A stretch of 62,532 nucleotides of DNA from a virus (IMGVR_UViG_3300048574_000038:1-62532), one strand, 5' to 3'. Positions 6,001-62,260 are shown, counted from the stretch's first letter. Translations and numbers: made by a program. Notes: generated by a model from the letters alone, not told the origin.

Positions 6001-7107
6001 TTATTCTACGTCCATCGGGGCGAAGTCGTTGTCCCTCGCGCCGTTCGTCTTACCCGGATGGTGCATCACACGGATTTTGCCTTCCGGCGGCCGCTTGTCT
6101 TCGTCGCTGGCGTGGCAAGTGCACACATGCTGCGGAGTTTCGGAATCATCCGCCTCCATCGGGTCAATGGCAGAAAGAAGTCGGAGAGATACGCGGGCTG
6201 CATCTTCCGCACTGATGCCGTCGATAACGATGGAAACACCACGCACAGCCATGTCGCCAGCACCAAGTTCATCCATTGTGATATCCAGCTTTGCCATGTT
6301 GTTCTCCTTCACAGGTTTGTAGGTGCGTGAAGCAAGCCAGTCGTATTCACCACGAAGTAAAAGAATATCTTTATCCTTCTGGTCAACGGTGTCGTGCAAA
6401 CTGTTGCACTCTTCTGTAAGCAGGTCGTTGCGCTGCTCCAGTTCCTTGATACGAACAGACGCAAGCCTCGCGTTGTGTTGGAGATTCTTGAGTGCTTCCA
6501 CGAGATACACCGGGTTAGTCCCGCTTGCTTTCAACTTGCGGAACTTGTTAACCAAGTGTTCCAACTTGTGCCTGTAACTAGCGGACATAAGGGACAAGTC
6601 TCTGTCCCGACGTTTGTGCGCTTGGCGTTGCCGTTCCAACTTGCTTTGCAACGCTGTGTTTTCCCGTTCAAGCTGACCAAGCCTGTGTTGGAGATCCTCA
6701 TTTTGTGCCTCAATAAATGTCAATCCGATATTGGGCACATTGCTTTCAGTGAGCAAAGCAAGTTCCTGCTCAAGTTGAGCAACCGTATCGAGAAGCTCCG
6801 CATTGCGATTGTTGCACTTCTCGCAGACGGTGTATTCCAACTGTTTGGGAGAACTTTCCGTGGGCAACTTCTGTCCAAACTGAAGAAACTTGCCTACTTC
6901 AGCATCCACTAACGCCACGAATTTGTCAAAAGCGCCGGATTCTTTGCTGACGATGTCGGGGATAAGTTCCCGTACACTTTCGTAGTCCAGTATCTGCTTA
7001 GCGAGAAGCAGCATGTTCTGCGCATGAGGGTAATCTTCCGCCAGTTTGTCAAGAATGTTGTTAGTAACACGCAGCGTCTCTTCCACGAGCGTTTCCAACT
7101 TTTCCAT
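6001..7107 (-). CDS. Coiled-coil protein (368 aa)
   Basis: AAGGAG SD; long heptad-rich region, CEKC motif; internal SD plus ATG at 6297. Confidence 0.8.
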   Translation of the reverse strand: MEKLETLVEETLRVTNNILDKLAEDYPHAQNMLLLAKQILDYESVRELIPDIVSKESGAFDKFVALVDAEVGKFLQFGQKLPTESSPKQLEYTVCEKCNNRNAELLDTVAQLEQELALLTESNVPNIGLTFIEAQNEDLQHRLGQLERENTALQSKLERQRQAHKRRDRDLSLMSASYRHKLEHLVNKFRKLKASGTNPVYLVEALKNLQHNARLASVRIKELEQRNDLLTEECNSLHDTVDQKDKDILLLRGEYDWLASRTYKPVKENNMAKLDITMDELGAGDMAVRGVSIVIDGISAEDAARVSLRLLSAIDPMEADDSETPQHVCTCHASDEDKRPPEGKIRVMHHPGKTNGARDNDFAPMDVE

Positions 7108-7127
7108 AATAGCTCCTTTGTTTTATT

Positions 7128-7483
7128 GGGCAGCCTTGCGCACGACTGCCCTAAAAACCAAGGATATTTTACGTTAATGAGTACCAACAAACTAGCAGGG
7201 AATTGCTAGACTTGGTAAATATCAGCCAACTGCTGTACATACAGAGTCCCAAACTCTGCGTTGCAACAGGCACAACACGGCGCATGGCACGTACACTAAT
7301 GTGTAGATAGCTGACTGTATTATGAATGTGGTGAACATGTGTTCCCATCCATCCCACAGCGGGGTAAGCCAGATACTAACACACTTGTACACGGCAGTAC
7401 GCATAATAGCTACTGCATACACAACCACTCCTTTGTTTTATGCAAGCCCCAACTCTAGGTCAGAGCTTGTATTAAAGCAAAGG
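7128..7483 (-). ncRNA. Possible structured RNA B or processing leader
   Basis: Hairpins GGGCAG/CTGCCC, ACCAA-CTAGCA/TGCTAG-TTGGT, CAGAG/CTCTG, GCAGTA/TACTGC and a long irregular stem at 7430-7483; ORFs here are unconvincing. Confidence 0.4.
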
Positions 7484-7519
7484 AATTGACCGAAGGGAAA
7501 CTAATTGACCGAAGGGAAA
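7484..7519 (+). repeat. Tandem 17-bp motif AATTGACCGAAGGGAAA (2 copies)
   Basis: Copies at 7484-7500 and 7503-7519; further copies at 10996-11012 and, inverted with 2 mismatches, at 9824-9840. Confidence 0.85.
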
Positions 7520-7528
7520 GGAAACAAG

Positions 7529-8224
7529 TTATGCCGCCTGCTTGTTAACCTGCAAGCAAGAGGCAATGGCCGCAACCACGCTTGCCATCATGGCGTTATT
7601 GTCGGCAACAGGAGAAAGCATTTTCACCACGTCTTCAAGAGGCTTGGGCAGAGGAGCCGCAGTACTGGAAGGCAGGTCAACGCCAAGCTCCTTTGCCTTC
7701 TTTTCAAGGCGAGAGAAGGAATCAAGAATGGCCTTCGCCTTGTCTTCCTGCGTCTTGGCGGCGTTCTTCGCTTCGCGTTCGGCCTTTTGTTCGGCCTTCA
7801 GGTTGTCGTACCACTTGCCCGCGCCAAGAACAGTGATGGCAATGGCGGACACAAAGGCCAGACATTCCTTGTCCACGTCAGACAGTTTGTTCGGGTCACG
7901 GCTGGACTCCCAAGCCTTGCCGCCGGACTTGTCCTTATAAATGGCCTGTGCGGCGCGGAAAGAGAAGACAACCTTCTTCTTGTCCTTGTCCCACATAACG
8001 GGAACGCCCTTGCGCGTCATGTACTCGCGCATGTAGGGCTTCATCTTGTCCGGCACGGCGGCAAGCAATTGGTTGCAGTATGTGGCGTTGCAATCACGAA
8101 TGGCACGTTCAACGCAGGGAAGCAGCAGGGTTTGCGCACCTTCCTGCATTTCCTTGACGGTTGCCGTGAACTTCGCCAGCTTGGAAACAAGATCACTTTC
8201 GCTCATAATGTACGCAGTGGCCAT
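7529..8224 (-). CDS. Early hypothetical protein (231 aa)
   Basis: GAGGAG SD; strong codon bias. Confidence 0.85.
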   Translation of the reverse strand: MATAYIMSESDLVSKLAKFTATVKEMQEGAQTLLLPCVERAIRDCNATYCNQLLAAVPDKMKPYMREYMTRKGVPVMWDKDKKKVVFSFRAAQAIYKDKSGGKAWESSRDPNKLSDVDKECLAFVSAIAITVLGAGKWYDNLKAEQKAEREAKNAAKTQEDKAKAILDSFSRLEKKAKELGVDLPSSTAAPLPKPLEDVVKMLSPVADNNAMMASVVAAIASCLQVNKQAA

Positions 8225-8253
8225 GGTGTATCTCCTCTGTATTAAATTGTTGT

Positions 8254-8269
8254 TGTTTCATGTGAAACA
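8254..8269. promoter_or_regulatory. parS-like palindrome
   Basis: TGTTTCATGTGAAACA, one mismatch from the chromosomal parS consensus TGTTTCACGTGAAACA. Confidence 0.75.
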
Positions 8270-8286
8270 TTGTTTAGTGACTAACC

Positions 8287-8334
8287 AAAAATAAAAACCG
8301 CTAGGTAAGACCTTTTGTCAAGGATACCTAGCGG
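8287..8334 (-). terminator. Intrinsic terminator
   Basis: CCGCTAGGTA...TACCTAGCGG stem followed by TTTTTATTTT on the - strand. Confidence 0.75.
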
Positions 8335-9014
8335 CTTGTATTTTGTTTTGTCTTTCCTGCCGTATCGTTGCTTCGCTAGAAACATCGTCTACGGCTACCT
8401 TTGAATCAAACGGATTTCGCCAGCCCATACTTTCGTTGCTGGTATTACACAAGCCCGTGTACTTGTGCTTTTACTGGCTATCTTTACAAGTAACCCCTTT
8501 TGCCTTTTATCAAGGCCAGCCTAGTGTTTGTGAAACACTAAACCGCGTTTCGGTTACTTGCTGGAAGCGTTGTTTCATGTGAAACGCATATTGTTTTCTC
8601 CGTAAAGAAAACTAACGTTCACTTAAAACGTACTTCCATCACGCAATCCCATTATGCTTATGCAAGGGCAATCCTTGCCATACTTGGGATATGCTATCCG
8701 CCGTATTGTCTCTTTATATGGCGCAATCTTGCGCGAGACTATCCCACTGCATTACGCTTTCTGAGTCTGCGCAATGTGCCAGTACAGCAGGAAGGCGGGC
8801 CAGTAACTAAGCATGTGCCTAGCTTGGCGGTCTTTACGGCAATGCAGTATTATGAGCGCTGCACCGTGTGACAATTCACACGCTAAGTATAGGGAAAAGT
8901 TAATCTAGTTAACCCTTTCGTTAATCCCTAACTTTTCGCCTTTTGTATCTTATGTGCGGCTTGCGCTGCACAACGTACTAAGGCTTGCGCTTGGTACTTT
9001 CGTACCTTCTCTTG
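8290..9014 (-). ncRNA. Candidate large structured RNA C (about 720 nt), bounded by promoter and terminator
   Basis: Starts just after the promoter at 9021-9049 and ends at the terminator; GGTAC-GAAA-GTACC and GC-GCAA-GC GNRA hairpins on the - strand; dense stems; no - strand ORF of 60 aa or more. Confidence 0.72.
8571..8586. promoter_or_regulatory. parS-like palindrome (second copy)
   Basis: TGTTTCATGTGAAACG. Confidence 0.7.
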
Positions 9015-9020
9015 ATAGTT

Positions 9021-9049
9021 ACCTTACACGAAAGCAAGGAACTTGTCAA
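9021..9049 (-). promoter_or_regulatory. Sigma70-type early promoter
   Basis: TTGACA-17bp-TAAGGT with TG upstream of the -10 and an AT-rich UP region. Confidence 0.75.
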
Positions 9050-9118
9050 GAAAAAACTTTATTTAATTTTCAGCGGGCTTGCGGCGCTTTGAGCTGCCAG
9101 CTACTGCCCTATGTGAAA

Positions 9119-9147
9119 ATCCTACTCTTTTGCGGCGGGCTTGTCAA
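9119..9147 (-). promoter_or_regulatory. Sigma70-type early promoter
   Basis: TTGACA-17bp-TAGGAT, A-tracts upstream. Confidence 0.75.
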
Positions 9148-9234
9148 CTACTTTTTTCACTTTTCAAAAACTTTCTTTTCTTGTATTTGCGGGTCAAATC
9201 TACTCTAGGTTGAGTGCCTACCCTGTTAGAAAAG

Positions 9235-9263
9235 AGATTAAAGAAAACTGGAAACAATGTCAA
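9235..9263 (-). promoter_or_regulatory. Sigma70-type early promoter
   Basis: TTGACA-17bp-TAATCT, AT-rich upstream. Confidence 0.72.
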
Positions 9264-9321
9264 GTAAAATTTTTGGGCTTGTCTTATTTAATGTAGCACA
9301 AGCCCTAAGCTACTGATATTG

Positions 9322-9807
9322 TTAGCTTTTTTCTTCTTGTCTTTTGCAATAGCGGCGAGCTATCACAAGATTGCATGCCCGCAAATGCCTTGCCTGCCGG
9401 ACATTATCCGCAGATACAGTGACCGTCATTGCGAGATTGTCACTTGTTTGGCCTATGTATATGGCCTTGCTGCGGCCTTTGCCTTGTGCAACGTCCATCC
9501 ACAAGGCGTTGCTGATTGTCTTGGCCTTGGATGCAATGCGGCAACCATTGTTTTTATACGTTCGCCGCGTGTTCTTTGCCGGTAATGTGATAACGTCCAC
9601 GCCCTCGATTGTTTCCACAATACACTTGCTCACATAGCGTTGCAATTTGTCGGCCTTGCGTTGTGCCTTGTCCTGCCATTCTTTGCCTTGCGCCATGAGC
9701 CGCATGGCCTCTCCGGCTAACTGCCTTGCTTCCTTGGCGGATTTGCCTTGCTTGCGATATAGCTTTATCAGCTTTTTGATATAGCCAGCCCTTTCGATTT
9801 TGTCCAT
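9322..9807 (-). CDS. Basic early hypothetical protein
   Basis: GAGGAGG SD before MDKIERAG; Lys/Arg-rich. Confidence 0.75.
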   Translation of the reverse strand: MDKIERAGYIKKLIKLYRKQGKSAKEARQLAGEAMRLMAQGKEWQDKAQRKADKLQRYVSKCIVETIEGVDVITLPAKNTRRTYKNNGCRIASKAKTISNALWMDVAQGKGRSKAIYIGQTSDNLAMTVTVSADNVRQARHLRACNLVIARRYCKRQEEKS

Positions 9808-9912
9808 TTTTTGCCTCCTCACTTTTCCCTTTAGTCAATTGTTGTCTATATAGATTGTTCTACCATAGCAAAGCACAAACTATACAGGCTTGTGCCTTGG
9901 CTGATAGAACAG

Positions 9913-10074
9913 CTAATAGTTGACAGTATGATTTGCACCGGGCATAAAATCGTATGCCCAATCTATGCCAGCACGCCATGCCCGCCAATGGGAGCCAAAA
10001 CATACAGATGCCGTGCTAAACCGCATATCGTTATGGGATACTGCCATGACGATACAAGAAAAGAAATTATCCAT
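9913..10074 (-). CDS. Small early protein (53 aa), absent from the ORF track
   Basis: GAGGTAGG SD, MDNFFSCIVMAV...TVNY*. Confidence 0.5.
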   Translation of the reverse strand: MDNFFSCIVMAVSHNDMRFSTASVCFGSHWRAWRAGIDWAYDFMPGANHTVNY

Positions 10075-10170
10075 TACCTACCTCGCAAGTTAATTGTTAA
10101 TCCAATCCAAGGCGCAAATATTCCAGCTACTTGCGCCTTGTATGATTCAACAATCGTAATTCCAGCGGCC

Positions 10171-10335
10171 TTACTCCGCATTGCGTCTGGTAATGTTGTC
10201 TATTTCAATCTGGATTGCCCTTTCTTCGGCCTCTTCACGCTCCTCGGCAAGCCGCCTGCGTTCTTCGGCTGATTGTTCAACCCGTTGTGACCATTCCAGC
10301 AAGAGAGATATGACATAATCGTTTGTATTGCTCAT
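10171..10335 (-). CDS. Small acidic helical early protein
   Basis: AGGGAG SD before MSNTND. Confidence 0.65.
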   Translation of the reverse strand: MSNTNDYVISLLLEWSQRVEQSAEERRRLAEEREEAEERAIQIEIDNITRRNAE

Positions 10336-10899
10336 GGTATTTGCTCCCTTTAATCGCAAAGGTTATTAAGCAGCAAGCTAGCTGATTGCATAGCCAAGTT
10401 TGCCTGAAACATACTCGCGCATTCATTGTAACGGCGTTGCGTCCAGCTATACGTTGTGTGCATGTGCAAGCGTTGCATACGGATTGCTCCAAGAGACATT
10501 GTTTCGAGGCGGGCTTGATCGTAGCGTTCGCGTCCGTAGTATGTGGCCATGTGCATTCTCCTGATGCCTTGCGGCGGTTAAGGTGAACTTGAACTGAAAA
10601 CAATTTAGCAAAGTTTTAAAAGAAAGTAAAGTTTTAATAAAATCAATTAGTTAGCTTTAAGTTCTTGTTGGAGCCTATGCTTCTAGCGAAGCGACGATGG
10701 TACTTGTCTTTCCATTGGTATCGTATTGCAGACTATGTGCCGATTCCGGGTAATTTTTGGGTGCAATTTCGCTTGTTTACGTCCAAATACCTGTAATTAT
10801 TGACAAAAAGTCACAAAAGTGAAGAATTTCACAAGGGGGAGAGGGGTTATAGGGGTACCAGTGGACACGAGGGTGACGGCTACGGGTGCAAGGAAAGCC

Positions 10900-11330
10900 A
10901 TCTCTGTGTATATTTATAAAATTTAGATTGATATTTATATCACCTCTATGTATATTTACTAAAGTTAGCTGTATATTTACAAAACTTAGATAAATAATTG
11001 ACCGAAGGGAAAAAGAAAAGGCCACCAATCTTTTCCTGATAATTCGGAGAAAACTGATGGCCAGTAGTGGGTATGAGAAGTACCAAAGGTACCATGAAGT
11101 TCTTTAAGCTACTTAAAGTAGTTTAATTATTTATAGTACTATATGTAGATAATAGCCTAGAACATATAGTATTATTATAATAAAATATAATATATTAAAG
11201 TATTTTAGTACTTTATGTAGATAAATTAACTATAAGTACTTGACATACTTATAGTATGTATTATAAGTACTTTAAGTTATTTAAGATAAATTTAAAGATC
11301 ATAATAGCCCGCCTTAAGTTTCTTAATTTC
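10900..11330. other. AT-rich non-coding region with short repeats and palindromes (candidate genome end or origin)
   Basis: TGTATATTTA x3 (10907, 10949, 10970), AGTACT/AAGTACTT palindromes, G-rich tract at about 10834-10890 just before. Confidence 0.5.
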
Positions 11331-11406
11331 CGAACTACGGTTATACTGCTTTTTGTTTTTAAAGAAGATAGTTGGTTGAACTGCCCTTTTACGAACTTTA
11401 ATATCT

Positions 11407-12393: not shown

Positions 12394-12675
12394 ATGGACG
12401 TTTCTACAGTACTTGAGTTCTTTAAAGACATAAGCCCGCTGATAAATACGGCTAGTTTCGCTACATTTTTGATTTTGTATTCAAAAATACGGGACATAGA
12501 GGCTACAATAGCACTGCTTGATGGCAGAGTTACGAGATATCTTGAAAGAACAGTAACTGTAGAGCAAGATCTTAAAGAAATTACTTCTTTTGTCTACTCA
12601 CACTACAATCTTACTCCCGAAAATGCTTTGAAATATCTTCATAGGCATAACGGGTGTCAATCTGTAGAAAAATAA
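12394..12675 (+). CDS. Small membrane/coiled-coil protein
   Basis: N-terminal hydrophobic helix followed by heptads; first gene of the late block. Confidence 0.6.
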   Translation: MDVSTVLEFFKDISPLINTASFATFLILYSKIRDIEATIALLDGRVTRYLERTVTVEQDLKEITSFVYSHYNLTPENALKYLHRHNGCQSVEK

Positions 12676-12720
12676 ACATAAAAGTAGCAGTTGTCAAACT
12701 TAATTAGATAGGTATATACT

Positions 12721-47972: not shown

Positions 47973-47993
47973 ACCTTACCTCAGATAAAAATA

Positions 47994-48618
47994 ACACTAG
48001 CTAGAGAACAATCTGTAGCAGCAAGCCATTTCAGGCTTTCCATTACATAATCACTCCCTAGCTAGTGTCTAGACCCAAGGTGCACCCGATGTGCAATGTT
48101 ACCACCTACGTGGCTGCAACCAGTTGGTAGAGACTGGCTGGAAATTTAACACGGTACCGTTTGCGATCGTACTCGTTGGTATGCCTGTACTATTACTAAC
48201 AACGATTTAGCTAACAACAGTACTTAGTTGTTGGTATGCTTCCCAACAACACTCGGATAGTGTTATCGACGAGACACATTATTAAGGTTGTGTAACCCAA
48301 ACACAGCAGTGCGTCCCTTGCGTGGAGGGACATACACCTACACATGTACGATATGATAATCGGTTAGCTGTTGATCACCGAGGTACAAGAGCTAGCGAAC
48401 TCTCTTTTAGCAGCCGTGTACCAGTAGGCTGGTGGATCTTACGCTATATCTATGATGTATCCACTACCATCACAGTTTGAACATTGGTGCGGGGCTTCGT
48501 TACTTCCCCTATCTTCTCCGAAGAATTTCTGGAATAGCACCATCGTCCGGCTGATACATTCAAACGAAGTCCAACCCTCACAGCTTTGGTTGGTTGCACT
48601 GTAGCCTATTATCTAGGC
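47994..48618 (-). ncRNA. Candidate large structured RNA F (about 625 nt)
   Basis: No ORF of 60 aa or more within it; more than a dozen stems, e.g. ACACTAGCTAG/CTAGCTAGTGT extended by several G-U pairs on the - strand, GTTTGAA/TTCAAAC enclosing TGGTGC/GCACCA. Confidence 0.72.
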
Positions 48619-51032: not shown

Positions 51033-51109
51033 TGGCAGCAGCGCTAGGATTCGAACCTAGGAATAACCGAGTCAAAGTCGGTTGTGTTAAACCACTTCAC
51101 CACGCTGCT
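51033..51109 (-). tRNA. tRNA-Gln(UUG)
   Basis: Acceptor AGCAGCG/CGCTGCT, anticodon arm ACCGA-CTTTGAC-TCGGT, T arm CTAGG-TTCGAAT-CCTAG, encoded CCA. Confidence 0.92.
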
Positions 51110-51111
51110 AC

Positions 51112-51510
51112 ATCTGGTAGGATAACCTGTTGTGGACTTTTGCTGGATCACACTCCTTCCAGTTATCCTACCAGTTCACCAAGCACAACGCTTGGATAAA
51201 TTCCTCCACCTAACTAGCGCCCTCACGTTACTAGTTACTAGTCAGATGGAGGCACGGCCCTTACAAGGAGGGAGAGTAAGGAGGCTTGCCGTGTAATTTG
51301 TTGGCTACCCAGACCGCCGAGACAGGGTAGCCATTCGTCCATGCGAGGGAGTAGGCACACGACGAAAATTTGTGGCACTAGCAACATGCTACGAGGCTAT
51401 CCTCCTTGTCGATTATACATGTCACTGTGCCAGTAGTTCAGTTTTAACAGCCAGTTATTATCAAACGCCGTACTGCGGTGTCCGGAACATACCGAACTAA
51501 CTGAACAATA
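51112..51510 (-). ncRNA. Candidate structured RNA G (about 400 nt) filling the tRNA-Thr/tRNA-Gln spacer
   Basis: Eight back-to-back hairpins; + strand A-C mismatches become G-U pairs on the - strand (51203-51252, 51373-51432); complementary loops. Confidence 0.8.
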
Positions 51511-51513
51511 AAA

Positions 51514-51589
51514 TGGAGCTAGCGAAGGGACTTGAACCCATAACCCCCTGATTACAAATCAGGCGCTCTGCCAATTGAGCTACGCTAGC
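51514..51589 (-). tRNA. tRNA-Thr(UGU)
   Basis: GCTAGCG/CGCTAGC acceptor, CCTGA-TTTGTAA-TCAGG anticodon arm, GTTCAAGTC T loop, CCA. Confidence 0.93.
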
Positions 51590-51599
51590 AAAAGAAATT

Positions 51600-51684
51600 T
51601 GGTGCGAGAGGTGGGATTTGAACCCACACGCCTTTCAGCAGCGGGGTTTAAAGCCGCCCTGTCTACCGTTCCATACACTCTCGC
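51600..51684 (-). tRNA. tRNA-Leu(UAA)
   Basis: GCGAGAG/CTCTCGC acceptor, loop TTTAAAC, long variable arm, GTGGG-TTCAAAT-CCCAC, A discriminator, CCA; C-C mismatch in the anticodon stem. Confidence 0.85.
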
Positions 51685-57617: not shown

Positions 57618-58832
57618 CTATACTGTGGTACGGCTGGCGCTTTCGAGTGGGTGCAGAATGTACCCGGCTACCAGTATCCGTTCCAGAATTAAATCAAAAG
57701 TCTCCGGAACTTGGTGATGCAAGCTCTGCCGTTCTGGTACACAAGTACCGCGTTGTAAAAGGCAGAAATCACCGATTTCAGCTTCTGGAAAAGCTGCGTG
57801 AGAATCACAGGGATTTTCGGAGGACGCCAAACCGGAATGGCCGTTCCGCAATTTTTGCGTGGGCCATTGGTCAGTACCATCGGGCCAACTCGCGCCATGG
57901 GAGGAAGGTACTTCTCGTACTTCCTCGAAAAGAGGTCGGAGATCATTGCCTTTATCGTCATTGAAAAGTTGGGGAAACGCATGGCGCAACTCCTTGCATA
58001 TCGTTGATGGTTTATAACACTTTGGGTCTTTTACCGTCGATACGGTCTTGGCAGTAATGCCAAACACATTAAGTCGCTTCGTGAAGACTAACGCATCACA
58101 CCGTTTATCTCGGTCAAGCCACACGCAGACTTGCCTATCCTCCGAGAGCAGCTTGACAATCAAGTTGTCGCTGATGAAACTCCCAAGGAGTGCAATGGCC
58201 CGAGCTTTGCCTGTTCGGGAAATAGCTATAGCAGACAGAATGTCTTCAACCAAGACGGTTATAGGAAAGTCACCACCCGTATCAAACCAAATATTGCCGC
58301 GAGAGCTTTTTGTGTTGATATACTTCGATTGCCTTTTATCAAGGCCGAAATACCTACCCTGCCAGTACACGAGTCTACCATTCTCGTCCCTTACGGGTAG
58401 GACTAGGCGGTTATATTTTGGACTCCAGCAAAATCCGTACTTTTGTATCTCCTGTTGAGTAATTCCGTACAGTCGCAACCACACTAAGGCGCTCGTTGGC
58501 AGCTCATCTGTGATATCCATTGGAAGATACACAGAATACTTAGTAATTGTTTGCGTGTTTGCCGATGGTACGCGCTTACGAGGATTCTGGATCATTCGTG
58601 CTTTTAGCTCACCAGATACTCGCAAACATTCTTTCCTTGGAGGTATGGCCCCACCAATACCATAAGACTTGTGACACCCATGACACCAGCAAATAAAGCC
58701 GGTATTTGTTCGGGTAACTACAAAGCCAAGGCGCTTAACCGTCCCACAGAATGGGCACTTACCGTACCTTTTGGTACCGCCTATGGTCTGGTTGTAATCA
58801 AGATACGTTCGCATCAAGTCTCGGTCAAACAT
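57618..58832 (-). CDS. DNA primase (Zn-binding plus Toprim)
   Basis: CPFC...CHGC, RLVLP, YWQGR, KY, LVEDILSA, ALLG, WLD.D, KDPK. Confidence 0.88.
   Translation of the reverse strand: MFDRDLMRTYLDYNQTIGGTKRYGKCPFCGTVKRLGFVVTRTNTGFICWCHGCHKSYGIGGAIPPRKECLRVSGELKARMIQNPRKRVPSANTQTITKYSVYLPMDITDELPTSALVWLRLYGITQQEIQKYGFCWSPKYNRLVLPVRDENGRLVYWQGRYFGLDKRQSKYINTKSSRGNIWFDTGGDFPITVLVEDILSAIAISRTGKARAIALLGSFISDNLIVKLLSEDRQVCVWLDRDKRCDALVFTKRLNVFGITAKTVSTVKDPKCYKPSTICKELRHAFPQLFNDDKGNDLRPLFEEVREVPSSHGASWPDGTDQWPTQKLRNGHSGLASSENPCDSHAAFPEAEIGDFCLLQRGTCVPERQSLHHQVPETFDLILERILVAGYILHPLESASRTTV
57689..57982 (-). CDS. Small basic protein nested in the primase 3' extension
   Basis: AAGGAG SD 7 nt upstream of ATG; starts right after the KDPK end of the Toprim domain. 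Confidence 0.5.
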   Translation of the reverse strand: MRFPNFSMTIKAMISDLFSRKYEKYLPPMARVGPMVLTNGPRKNCGTAIPVWRPPKIPVILTQLFQKLKSVISAFYNAVLVYQNGRACITKFRRLLI

Positions 58833-61392: not shown

Positions 61393-61680
61393 TTAGCTTC
61401 CCGCTTTGGGTGTTGCTTTTTCGGCATCTGCCTTCCTGTTCTTGAGTTCAAGCATTTTGGCAGACGCCGCAGTTGATGCCGCGTTGTGTATAGCGTCAGA
61501 CTCTTCCTGTGTGGAAGCTGATGTCTCAATGTGGCAATACATTTTGCCGTCTGTAGCATTTACCGCTTTGTCGCGGTGTTTTTTGGCCTTCTCGGCAAAA
61601 ACTACAACACCAAGACCGTATAAACCTGCTAGCGCAGCATACCCAACGCTTTTCAGCACGTTCTTCCAGTAAGGACTCAT
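61393..61680 (-). CDS. Small membrane protein
   Basis: GAGG SD; N-terminal TM. Confidence 0.6.
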   Translation of the reverse strand: MSPYWKNVLKSVGYAALAGLYGLGVVVFAEKAKKHRDKAVNATDGKMYCHIETSASTQEESDAIHNAASTAASAKMLELKNRKADAEKATPKAGS

Positions 61681-61682
61681 GG

Positions 61683-61913
61683 TTAACCTCGCACGAGGAT
61701 TTGTACGCGGACACTAGCGGAGTCAAGTTTCCGAACTTGCGATTCTGGAACAATGACATTCACACCGTCTTCGCGAAGGATGTAGTTAAAGCTCATGCCA
61801 TTCATGCGGCAAGAGCTTATGTATATCCCTTTTACAGTGCGACCATGCTCGTCTGTGTATTCACAAGGACGAGTAGGCCACGTTTCCACAGACACCAGAG
61901 TTTTCACATCCAT
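61683..61913 (-). CDS. Small beta-barrel-like protein
   Basis: AAGGA SD before MDVKTLV. Confidence 0.6.
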   Translation of the reverse strand: MDVKTLVSVETWPTRPCEYTDEHGRTVKGIYISSCRMNGMSFNYILREDGVNVIVPESQVRKLDSASVRVQILVRG

Positions 61914-61980
61914 AATTTTTCCTTTGTTAAGGTTTAAGAAAGACAAGAAAAGTATTGCCCGGAGCAGCACAGTTAATACA

Positions 61981-62260
61981 GGTGATATTGAGCAGTACTA
62001 CTTAGTTACTGACCCTCTCCGCAGACAAGGATTTCACAGTTTTTCCTGAACTCGTATTGCCTCCGTCGTCGCTTCGCTCATGTGAACGTAGTGAGCACTA
62101 GAAGCGTAGAAGCAGATCACCATAACTGGAGCTAATCGAGATGTTTTATCGACCGTTAAGTCCTCGTATGTGCGAACTCTGGCCAGAGCGCGTCTTATTT
62201 AACGGGTGTCAACCTACTATTAGGAGCTACCTAACTTCGGCGGAAGACGTTATCTCTGCG
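61981..62260. ncRNA. Candidate structured RNA H (about 280 nt)
   Basis: GGTGAT/ATCACC, CGCTTC-GCTCA/TGAGC-GAAGCG, CCGTTAA/TTAACGG crossed by CGTCTT/AAGACG, long-range CGCAGA/TCTGCG. Confidence 0.55.

Follow-up and report, generated by a model that had tools for sequence, protein, structure and literature searches.

A putative 0.73–0.94 kb structured non-coding RNA behind tandem early promoters of an uncultured sewage podophage

A candidate promoter-to-terminator unit without a coding frame

The virus genome IMGVR_UViG_3300048574_000038 (62,532 nucleotides [nt]; hereafter the window, meaning the whole stretch of DNA that was analysed) is a podovirus-like contig from an uncultured sewage phage, and its IMG/VR record lies complete in the window with an estimated completeness of 94%. 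On the minus strand, a region of about 0.73 kb (8288–9014) lies between three tandem promoters and an intrinsic terminator, has no credible open reading frame (ORF) and is predicted to fold far more stably than expected from its composition. By its sequence the locus looks like a complete transcription unit, bounded by promoters and a terminator, for a non-coding RNA of 0.73–0.94 kb, and this candidate is a new, uncatalogued large structured phage RNA. An earlier, sequence-only reading of this DNA had proposed an ORF-less structured RNA made from the strongest early promoters; we found that the feature is real and that the descriptive part of that reading was supported, in that a non-coding, strongly folded unit running from promoter to terminator is indicated by sequence statistics, by syntenic equivalents and by compensatory changes in one such lineage. 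As to function, the explanation to which we tentatively give most weight, with somewhat less than even confidence, is that the RNA is released early in infection with a function of its own and also serves as an attenuator of the early operon.

The region is preceded by a compact promoter cluster. The pattern TTGACA-N17-TANNNT occurs at four sites in the whole window, both strands included, against 1.0 expected, and three of the four fall within 243 bp (9021–9263, minus strand) and read into the RNA region. Each has a TTGACA box 17 nt from its −10 box: promoter P1 (9235–9263, minus strand; TAATCT) has a predicted start at ~9228 and would give an RNA of ~940 nt, P2 (9119–9147, minus strand; TAGGAT) a start at ~9112 and an RNA of ~825 nt, and P3 (9021–9049, minus strand; TAAGGT) a start at ~9014 and an RNA of ~727 nt. 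Their spacings are 98 and 116 bp, and an A/T-rich tract lies upstream of each (72–80% A+T over 25 nt, with 72% at P1 and 80% at P3). The earlier description of these sites as near-consensus sigma-70 promoters held for the −35 box and the spacer but not for the −10 boxes, which are weak, with 3/6 (TAAGGT), 4/6 (TAGGAT) and 3/6 (TAATCT) matches to TATAAT; a strict promoter scan flagged P2 alone of the three, at 10 of 12 consensus matches. Likewise, the length of 720 nt that had been given is right for a start at P3 but not for the other two promoters (~825 and ~940 nt). To call the RNA the first product of the strongest early promoters was loose wording: the fourth site (12669–12697) is a promoter of this kind too and heads the same block of genes, with ~3 kb of them ahead of the cluster. 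Because the minus-strand genes begin at ~12.35 kb, the RNA locus lies ~3 kb inside the minus-strand early block.

The arrangement resembles the early cluster A1-A2-A3 of T7, which consists of three tandem host-polymerase promoters ~100–130 bp apart with strong −35 and imperfect −10 boxes. In both phages three tandem sigma-70 promoters on one strand lead into sequence that is untranslated up to the first early gene, and the spacings in the window, like those of the relative G002 described below (109 and 125 bp), are of the T7 type. The T7 leader, however, is ~175 nt long, contains an RNase III site and is not known to have a terminator before gene 0.3, whereas the leader in the window has at least four times that length and a strong terminator at its end. 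A separate 11-bp hairpin (GGGCUUGU...ACAAGCCC, 9272–9308) lies directly after a 166-amino-acid (aa) gene and before P1, and its words ACAAGCC and GGCUUGU recur in the −35 region of P2 and in the RNA at 8447–8456 and 8331–8337.

At its other end the region closes, as had been read from the sequence, in a clear intrinsic terminator (8288–8344, minus strand): a 13-bp stem with an inner 4-bp stem is followed by UUUUUAUUUUU (U5AU5), with a hairpin energy of −27.8 kcal/mol and a stem pair probability of 0.98 in the fold. A simple scan missed it because of the scan's loop rule. The hairpin is flanked by an A-tract and a U-tract (inverted repeat I2), and the terminator therefore looks bidirectional. 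The first ORF beyond it, of 231 aa (7529–8224, minus strand), follows 62 nt after the terminator and has a GAGGAG ribosome-binding site. No promoter was found in the 62-nt gap, and in the ~8 kb downstream of the RNA there is no other promoter of the strong type.

Between these boundaries coding potential is minimal. On the sense strand of 8225–9321 the longest ORF has 44 aa and a TTG start, and the longest stop-free run is 50 codons, or at most 109 codons when any one stop codon is read through; the statement that no sizeable minus-strand ORF is present was thus confirmed, none being credible under any stop-codon code over ~730 nt. Six sense ORFs reach at least 20 aa (22–44 aa), of which four start with TTG and none has a true Shine-Dalgarno sequence; a similar motif, AAGG, precedes only one, a 34-aa ORF (8385–8281) with an ATG start and AAGG 6–15 nt upstream. 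Natural variants carry 1-, 2- and 14-nt indels and replacements of 50–58 nt within every candidate small ORF, among them the loss of 1 nt at 8561 and of 14 nt at 8363, the gain of 2 nt at 8569 and a replacement of 8359–8416. Seven ORFs from both strands of the RNA region matched nothing in Pfam or PHROGs, and no ORF is common to the equivalent RNAs described below.

Predicted fold of the RNA

The RNA, taken as 728 nt, has a minimum free energy (MFE) of −268.5 kcal/mol, compared with −197.0 ± 6.3 kcal/mol for 20 dinucleotide shuffles (z −11.3). The excess amounts to ~−72 kcal/mol, or −0.099 kcal/nt, which per nucleotide is twice the best of 22 other 728-nt windows of the genome (+0.001 to −0.050). 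Over 200-nt windows the local z of the RNA region is −2.0 to −4.9, and elsewhere in the genome values down to −7.2 occur.

The predicted body (8288–9014, minus strand) contains 234 pairs, 21 of them G-U. It opens with the hairpin GGUAC-GAAA-GUACC (8993–9006, minus strand; +9 to +22 of the P3 transcript), which is present in the MFE fold at a pair probability of 1.00 and is probably a stabiliser of the 5′ end. The 5′ strand of a closing helix follows (8968–8990, minus strand); its 20 bp, in three segments, pair with 8447–8468 (minus strand) at a probability of 0.85–0.99 and close a multi-branched domain of 544 nt, as predicted from a single sequence. Beyond this domain, a hairpin GCCGUA...UACGGC with an inner UGUUUC/GAAGCA stem (8359–8395, minus strand; pair probability 1.00) forms a variable peripheral element. 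The five stems that the sequence-only reading had named after the opening hairpins all appeared in the MFE fold, with pair probabilities of 0.90–1.00. The GCAA-capped hairpin at 8955–8972 was absent from it, and the emphasis on GNRA loops had no statistical support: one GNRA-capped hairpin was found against 1.5 expected, and enrichment was rejected.

Two further observations concern folding. An 18-nt exact direct repeat, itself a small GCCUU...AAGGC hairpin, is common to the RNA (8500–8517) and the primase coding region (58329–58346; E 6e-4). The second-largest fold excess in the genome was that of the control window 61401–62128 (728 nt, minus strand), at −36 kcal/mol or −0.050 kcal/nt.

Syntenic equivalents in related phages

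The same module was found in four lineages: the window, the phage genome G002, a group of eight genomes and G019. In all four it lies 2.9–3.5 kb from a small-terminase-like gene in divergent orientation and has one layout, with tandem promoters, then 0.5–0.85 kb of ORF-less RNA, then a terminator or long hairpin; an intrinsic terminator ends the module in three of the four. The relative G002, complete at 58.9 kb (81% capsid identity; an identical ENA copy was confirmed), has three TTGACA promoters, ~510 nt without an ORF, a 13-bp terminator and, as first gene, a homologue of the 231-aa gene (25% identical). In the eight-genome group (66% capsid identity) two or three TTGACA promoters precede ~800 nt of ORF-less sequence, which ends in a long hairpin (~20 bp) before a different first gene. 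In G019 (63% capsid identity) two promoters precede an ORF-less RNA of ~575 nt and a terminator, past which a further 230 nt lead to a second terminator directly before yet another first gene. At the syntenic place of the related phage G022 (57% capsid identity) there are tightly packed small genes with no gap above 291 nt. Across the lineages, three unrelated families supply the first ORF downstream of the module, and the RNA is therefore not a riboregulator dedicated to any single gene. All five equivalent RNAs that were tested fold better than their shuffles (z −3.1 to −11.0). In three of the eight genomes (G015, G016 and G017) an extra ORF of ~50 aa (MLKYLSQRYV...) with its own ribosome-binding site sits after the 3′ hairpin of the RNA and before the first gene.

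Sequence similarity between these RNAs proved elusive. A distant-mode blastn search of the RNA against 50,697 GenBank phage records gave no match, a DNA search of five related records returned only matches of at most 22 nt (E at least 0.017), an exact 19-mer from the RNA had no match in viral contigs, and neither blastn at word size 7 nor nhmmer detected homology between the lineages. A search of viral, metagenome and genome contigs for relatives of the 231-aa gene led only to G002. A covariance model of the eight-genome RNA (R1, with those eight genomes as training set) found nothing in 305 kb under default filters; with the filters off its scores, 8.3 bits for the window and 9.0 bits for G019, did not exceed those of matches on the wrong strand, and among 50 records it matched its own eight training genomes only. 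Shared 8- to 10-mers between lineages were marginal (P 0.01–0.07 in three comparisons, not significant in two), with coding controls scoring similarly, and the short shared motifs GCUUGUGUAA, CCGUAGACGAUGUU and UCAAAGGUAG were discarded as a sign of homology, not being collinear. These results neither prove nor exclude common descent, because the rate at which the RNA evolves should leave no similarity to detect; the RNAs of the other lineages are treated here as syntenic equivalents and not as members of a family.

Compensatory changes and population variants

The eight-genome group provided an alignment of the 3′ 311 positions of its RNA (A2), for which RNAalifold gave a consensus of 86 pairs in 14 helices, with standard pairs in 98.4% of pair cells. 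At 27 of the 86 pairs both sides had changed and pairing was kept, compared with 2–3 such pairs when the partner column was slid by 1–3 positions and 13.0 ± 2.4 in column shuffles; most of these double changes trace to a single division, which sets G006 and G008 apart from the remaining six genomes, and the figure hence counts positions and not independent events. Several pairs either stay G-U throughout or alternate between G-U, G-C and A-U, which fits RNA rather than duplex DNA. Between G006 and G007 the RNA domain is 73% identical, compared with 80–89% for capsid, portal, terminase and polymerase DNA; in this group, then, the RNA changes more quickly than the structural genes do, yet its helices are kept. 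Subgroups differ by swaps of the 5′ and middle parts of the RNA, and long-range helices predicted from single sequences in these relatives are unreliable, conflicting with the covariation-supported fold.

For the RNA of the window itself, contigs from four wastewater and sludge runs cover 7400–10000 at 80–99% identity; one of these runs is labelled RNA-Seq but consists of contigs and was flagged as probably DNA, and is uninformative on expression. A contig covering 8183–8874 of the RNA has 38 substitutions in 647 nt, and a contig of the 231-aa gene from the same run has 39 in 679 nt, so that substitution density in the RNA region equals that of its coding neighbour; the gap letters number 53 in the former and 23 in the latter. 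The hairpin at 8359–8395 is replaced in two runs by 7 or 19 other letters, which looks like the swapping of a peripheral arm, and is elsewhere cut by a 14-nt deletion. A further 374 substitutions and 53 indels were recorded beyond those listed individually. Among the six substitutions listed in the RNA, those at 8449 and 8382 turn a predicted G-U pair into G-C, the former within the long-range closing helix, and that at 8657 falls in a loop.

Comparison with known RNAs

In its length above 500 nt, its lack of a coding frame and its predicted stability far above compositional expectation, the RNA resembles the large, ornate kind, and it matched no catalogued family. A cmscan search of 7000–11000 at E values up to 1 gave one chance miRNA match, outside the RNA, and the whole window compared with Rfam 15 at gathering score gave three tRNAs and no other RNA family; the families covered include GOLLD, ROOL, OLE, HEARO, raiA, tmRNA, RNase P, 6S and group I and II introns. 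The equivalent RNAs of five relatives had no Rfam match above chance. The GOLLD, ROOL and OLE RNAs (Rfam; PMC12286853, PMC5737381) are likewise longer than 500 nt, non-coding, heavily structured and often borne by phages or prophages, but are recognisable across phyla, whereas conservation of the RNA described here is confined to a narrow lineage. The position beside tRNA genes noted for the GOLLD/ROOL type in part of a third report (PMC7567579) does not apply in the window, where the tRNA genes are ~42 kb away.

Another comparison is with vibriophage ICP1, for which Barth et al. (2020, PMC7567579) describe a transcript of ~800 nt without an ORF as the most abundant RNA of the phage. The ICP1 RNA is of similar size, comes from an ORF-less gap of ~1 kb and is not beside tRNA genes (PMC7567579); it adjoins the lysis cluster and its expression was measured, whereas the RNA in the window heads an early operon and is predicted from sequence. 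Large non-coding RNAs are also mentioned for phage K, in an excerpt of PMC9241854.

Short RNAs that predominate through termination within 5′ untranslated regions (5′UTRs) are described for Pseudomonas phages in passages of Putzeys et al. (2024, PMC10914365). The parallels with those passages are a promoter, a terminator before the first ORF and no promoter between them, all of which are sequence predictions in the window; a predominant terminated RNA with a minority read-through mRNA, both forms being predicted here; and sequence conservation that stays within a genus (PMC10914365). The RNAs in those passages are shorter than 250 nt and have single promoters, whereas the window has an RNA of 727–940 nt with three promoters and a predicted multi-domain fold (PMC10914365).

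The position of the RNA also recalls smaller regulators. These comprise put of phage HK022, a promoter-proximal RNA of ~70 nt, and the lambda pR′-tR′ 6S transcript, a short terminated RNA of ~200 nt; like the RNA in the window, each is placed where read-through decides downstream expression. Both are much shorter than that RNA, to which they are likened by position, and no antiterminator protein is identifiable in the window.

Function of the RNA and alternative explanations

Under the explanation that we tentatively prefer, a released RNA with its own function that doubles as an attenuator, host sigma-70 RNA polymerase would start at the three tandem promoters, as their sequence indicates, and the nascent RNA of 0.73–0.94 kb would fold, by thermodynamic prediction, into the 5′ hairpin, a large closed multi-helix body and the 3′ hairpins. 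Most polymerases would then halt at the strong terminator and release an RNA which, because hairpins protect it at both ends, should accumulate, while the few polymerases that read through would provide the mRNA of the 231-aa gene and of the later genes, all of which lack a promoter of comparable kind. The released RNA would most probably act in trans, by its folded shape rather than by conserved sequence, and might early in infection act on a host or phage factor as a decoy or as a scaffold. We favour a product in its own right on three grounds: known cis leaders are several times shorter, selection acts on many helices in a sister lineage, and the module stays while the cargo gene changes between lineages. 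A more far-reaching version, which we regard as speculative and rather unlikely, would have a whole clade of uncultured sewage and gut podophages devoting its strongest early promoters to a structure-keeping but fast-evolving RNA of 0.5–0.95 kb for host takeover or anti-defence, with a host factor as the target of the decoy or scaffold; rapid sequence turnover and the swapping of modules would then be the marks of an arms race, and the RNA would be the counterpart of T7's first gene product.

Several results weigh against the proposal of a released, functional RNA. The antisense strand also folds well (z −8.7), and strand asymmetry was rejected as evidence for an RNA by the genome controls, the stability of sense over antisense (−28.5 kcal/mol) being ordinary beside a control average of −17.9 kcal/mol (sd 20). 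The fold of the window RNA is modelled from one sequence; homology with the RNAs of other lineages is not demonstrated, and covariation was seen only in a positional equivalent. Three of the six listed substitutions would break predicted pairs unless compensated by changes outside the listing, two in core helices (8987 and 8386) and one in a weak A/U extension at the U-tract of the terminator (8292). No significant complementarity of the RNA to the rest of the phage genome, and no trans or antisense target there, was found. In the eight-genome group, finally, a canonical terminator is absent and the RNA is continuous with the mRNA, which fits a role in cis.

Such a role is the strongest alternative, possible although we judge it unlikely: the RNA would be a purely cis-acting leader, acting on its own transcript or its own polymerase by conditional termination, put-like antitermination, removal by RNase III or shielding of the 5′ end from Rho and RNases, with the terminated RNA as a by-product. 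It is consistent with a terminator directly before a promoter-less first ORF in three of four lineages, with the want of any other strong-type promoter for the ~8 kb downstream, with the ~20-bp hairpin through which the eight-genome RNA runs into mRNA and with a 17-nt palindromic element common to the RNA and the 5′UTR of the first gene. Earlier work documents bimodal premature termination in phage 5′UTRs (PMC10914365) and reports that the nascent put RNA of HK022 alone makes polymerase terminator-resistant (PMC9378689). Known leaders of such kind, however, measure 70–250 nt and not 500–940 nt, and 86 selected base pairs in a domain of 311 positions far exceed the needs of a terminator switch. 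The cargo gene varies between lineages while the module is retained, and the fold contains no alternative anti-terminator pairing with the terminator stem (stem probability 0.98).

We consider it improbable that the region is a spacer of little or no function, made of decayed early genes with incidental structure and kept by the flanking promoters and terminator. For such a spacer speak the failure to align it between lineages whose capsid proteins are 63–81% identical, a pace of change above that of the structural genes (73% against 80–89% DNA identity for G006 and G007), the swapping or deletion of modules between close relatives and the lack of the gap in G022. Against this stand a fold excess twice that of any control window, compensatory changes at 27 pairs in the sister lineage, a substitution density equal to that of the coding neighbour and the retention of an ORF-less module of 0.5–0.85 kb in four lineages despite the dense packing of phage genomes.

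Still less probable, in our estimate, is an element acting as DNA or as a replication primer, whether an origin activated or primed by transcription, on the model of ColE1 RNA II or the T7 primary origin, or a set of palindromes serving as protein operators. Circumstantially, a ColE1 RNA II-type primer would accord with the PolA-type DNA polymerase that the window encodes, as it also does a DnaB-like helicase and a primase; the cumulative GC skew is lowest near 10–13 kb, a perfect 14-nt palindrome occurs twice, and the antisense strand folds well. The turn in the skew, however, coincides with the switch of coding strand and therefore says little; a more origin-like stretch, AT-rich and ORF-poor, lies at 10.6–11.4 kb, upstream of the promoters; in the sister lineage, the conserved G-U pairs and the G-U/G-C changes speak for RNA and against duplex DNA; and the strong terminator would release the RNA and not leave a hybrid, which argues against a primer. 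Least probable of all is that the region encodes one or more very small proteins missed by ORF statistics: six sense ORFs of 22–44 aa do exist, and one has an ATG with AAGG upstream, but that ATG lies within a stem of pair probability 1.00 and its ORF traverses the terminator, quite apart from the disrupting indels, the TTG starts and the missing protein-family matches.

Few structured RNAs of more than 500 nt are known from bacteria or phages, and the ones studied have proved structurally remarkable. Full-text literature searches found no description of a structured RNA of at least 0.5 kb directly behind tandem early phage promoters. If real, the RNA would be an uncatalogued example whose promoters and 5′ and 3′ ends are readable from sequence, standing at the very head of an early operon, with sister lineages that offer natural swap variants. 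It would be a concrete instance in which a phage spends its strongest host-polymerase promoters on an RNA product, testable without phage cultivation. Should it be only a long leader, it would still be the largest promoter-proximal attenuator module described for a phage in the literature searched.

The first gene and the palindromic elements

The protein encoded by the 231-aa gene matched nothing in PHROGs or Pfam, and its AlphaFold2 model (predicted local distance difference test score 78.7) had no fold match in the PDB at E <0.001. The gene belongs to a small orphan family of six clusters among 5.8 billion proteins, in which the C-terminal 70 residues are near-identical and the N-terminal parts ~55% identical across members, a pattern that suggests a mosaic. 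The neighbouring early proteins gave no match in PHROGs and Pfam except that of a 368-aa protein to one PHROG of unknown function, and an Atlas look-up of the 166-aa protein yielded sub-threshold leads only.

A 25-nt element that contains the palindrome GUUUCACAUGAAAC (repeat family D1) is present within the RNA as copy A (8569–8593, minus strand) and again as copy C (8252–8276, minus strand), past the terminator but ahead of the ribosome-binding site from which the 231-aa gene is read, and the variable hairpin at 8359–8395 is a third, degenerate copy. The element could be an operator for an RNA- or DNA-binding protein. The motif AATGTTTCACA was rejected as a genome-wide signal, being local to the RNA region and unused elsewhere in the genome, and the 17-mer palindrome motif matched 81 viral contigs, in unrelated and mostly coding contexts.

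Genome setting

The window encodes a large terminase, a portal, a major head protein and an internal virion protein, in addition to the replication genes named above and a protein of 2086 aa with an LPD38 domain. Minus-strand genes run from ~12.35 kb to position 1 and from 62.5 to 40.4 kb, and plus-strand genes occupy 12.4–40 kb. The nearest cultured phages, whose hosts are Pseudoalteromonas, Pseudomonas, Xanthomonas and Stenotrophomonas, have a capsid identity of only 35–41%. Parts of the stretch occur in public wastewater, sludge and bioreactor metagenomes (at least 20 rows from 12 studies), in which the word share is at most 0.18; none of the runs listed is a true RNA run.

Three other loci were noted. 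Upstream of the promoter cluster, 10600–11400 is AT-rich (33–42% G+C), has few ORFs and carries plus-strand TTGACA motifs at 10800 and 11240; it may be an origin or a regulatory region. The genes for tRNA-Gln(UUG), tRNA-Thr(UGU) and tRNA-Leu(UAA) form a cluster at 51033–51684 amid replication genes. A second ORF-poor stretch, of 621 nt (47973–48593, read in the minus-strand sense), has a fold z of −5.7 against 20 shuffles and ends in a long perfect terminator-like hairpin with a U run, and is possibly another non-coding RNA.

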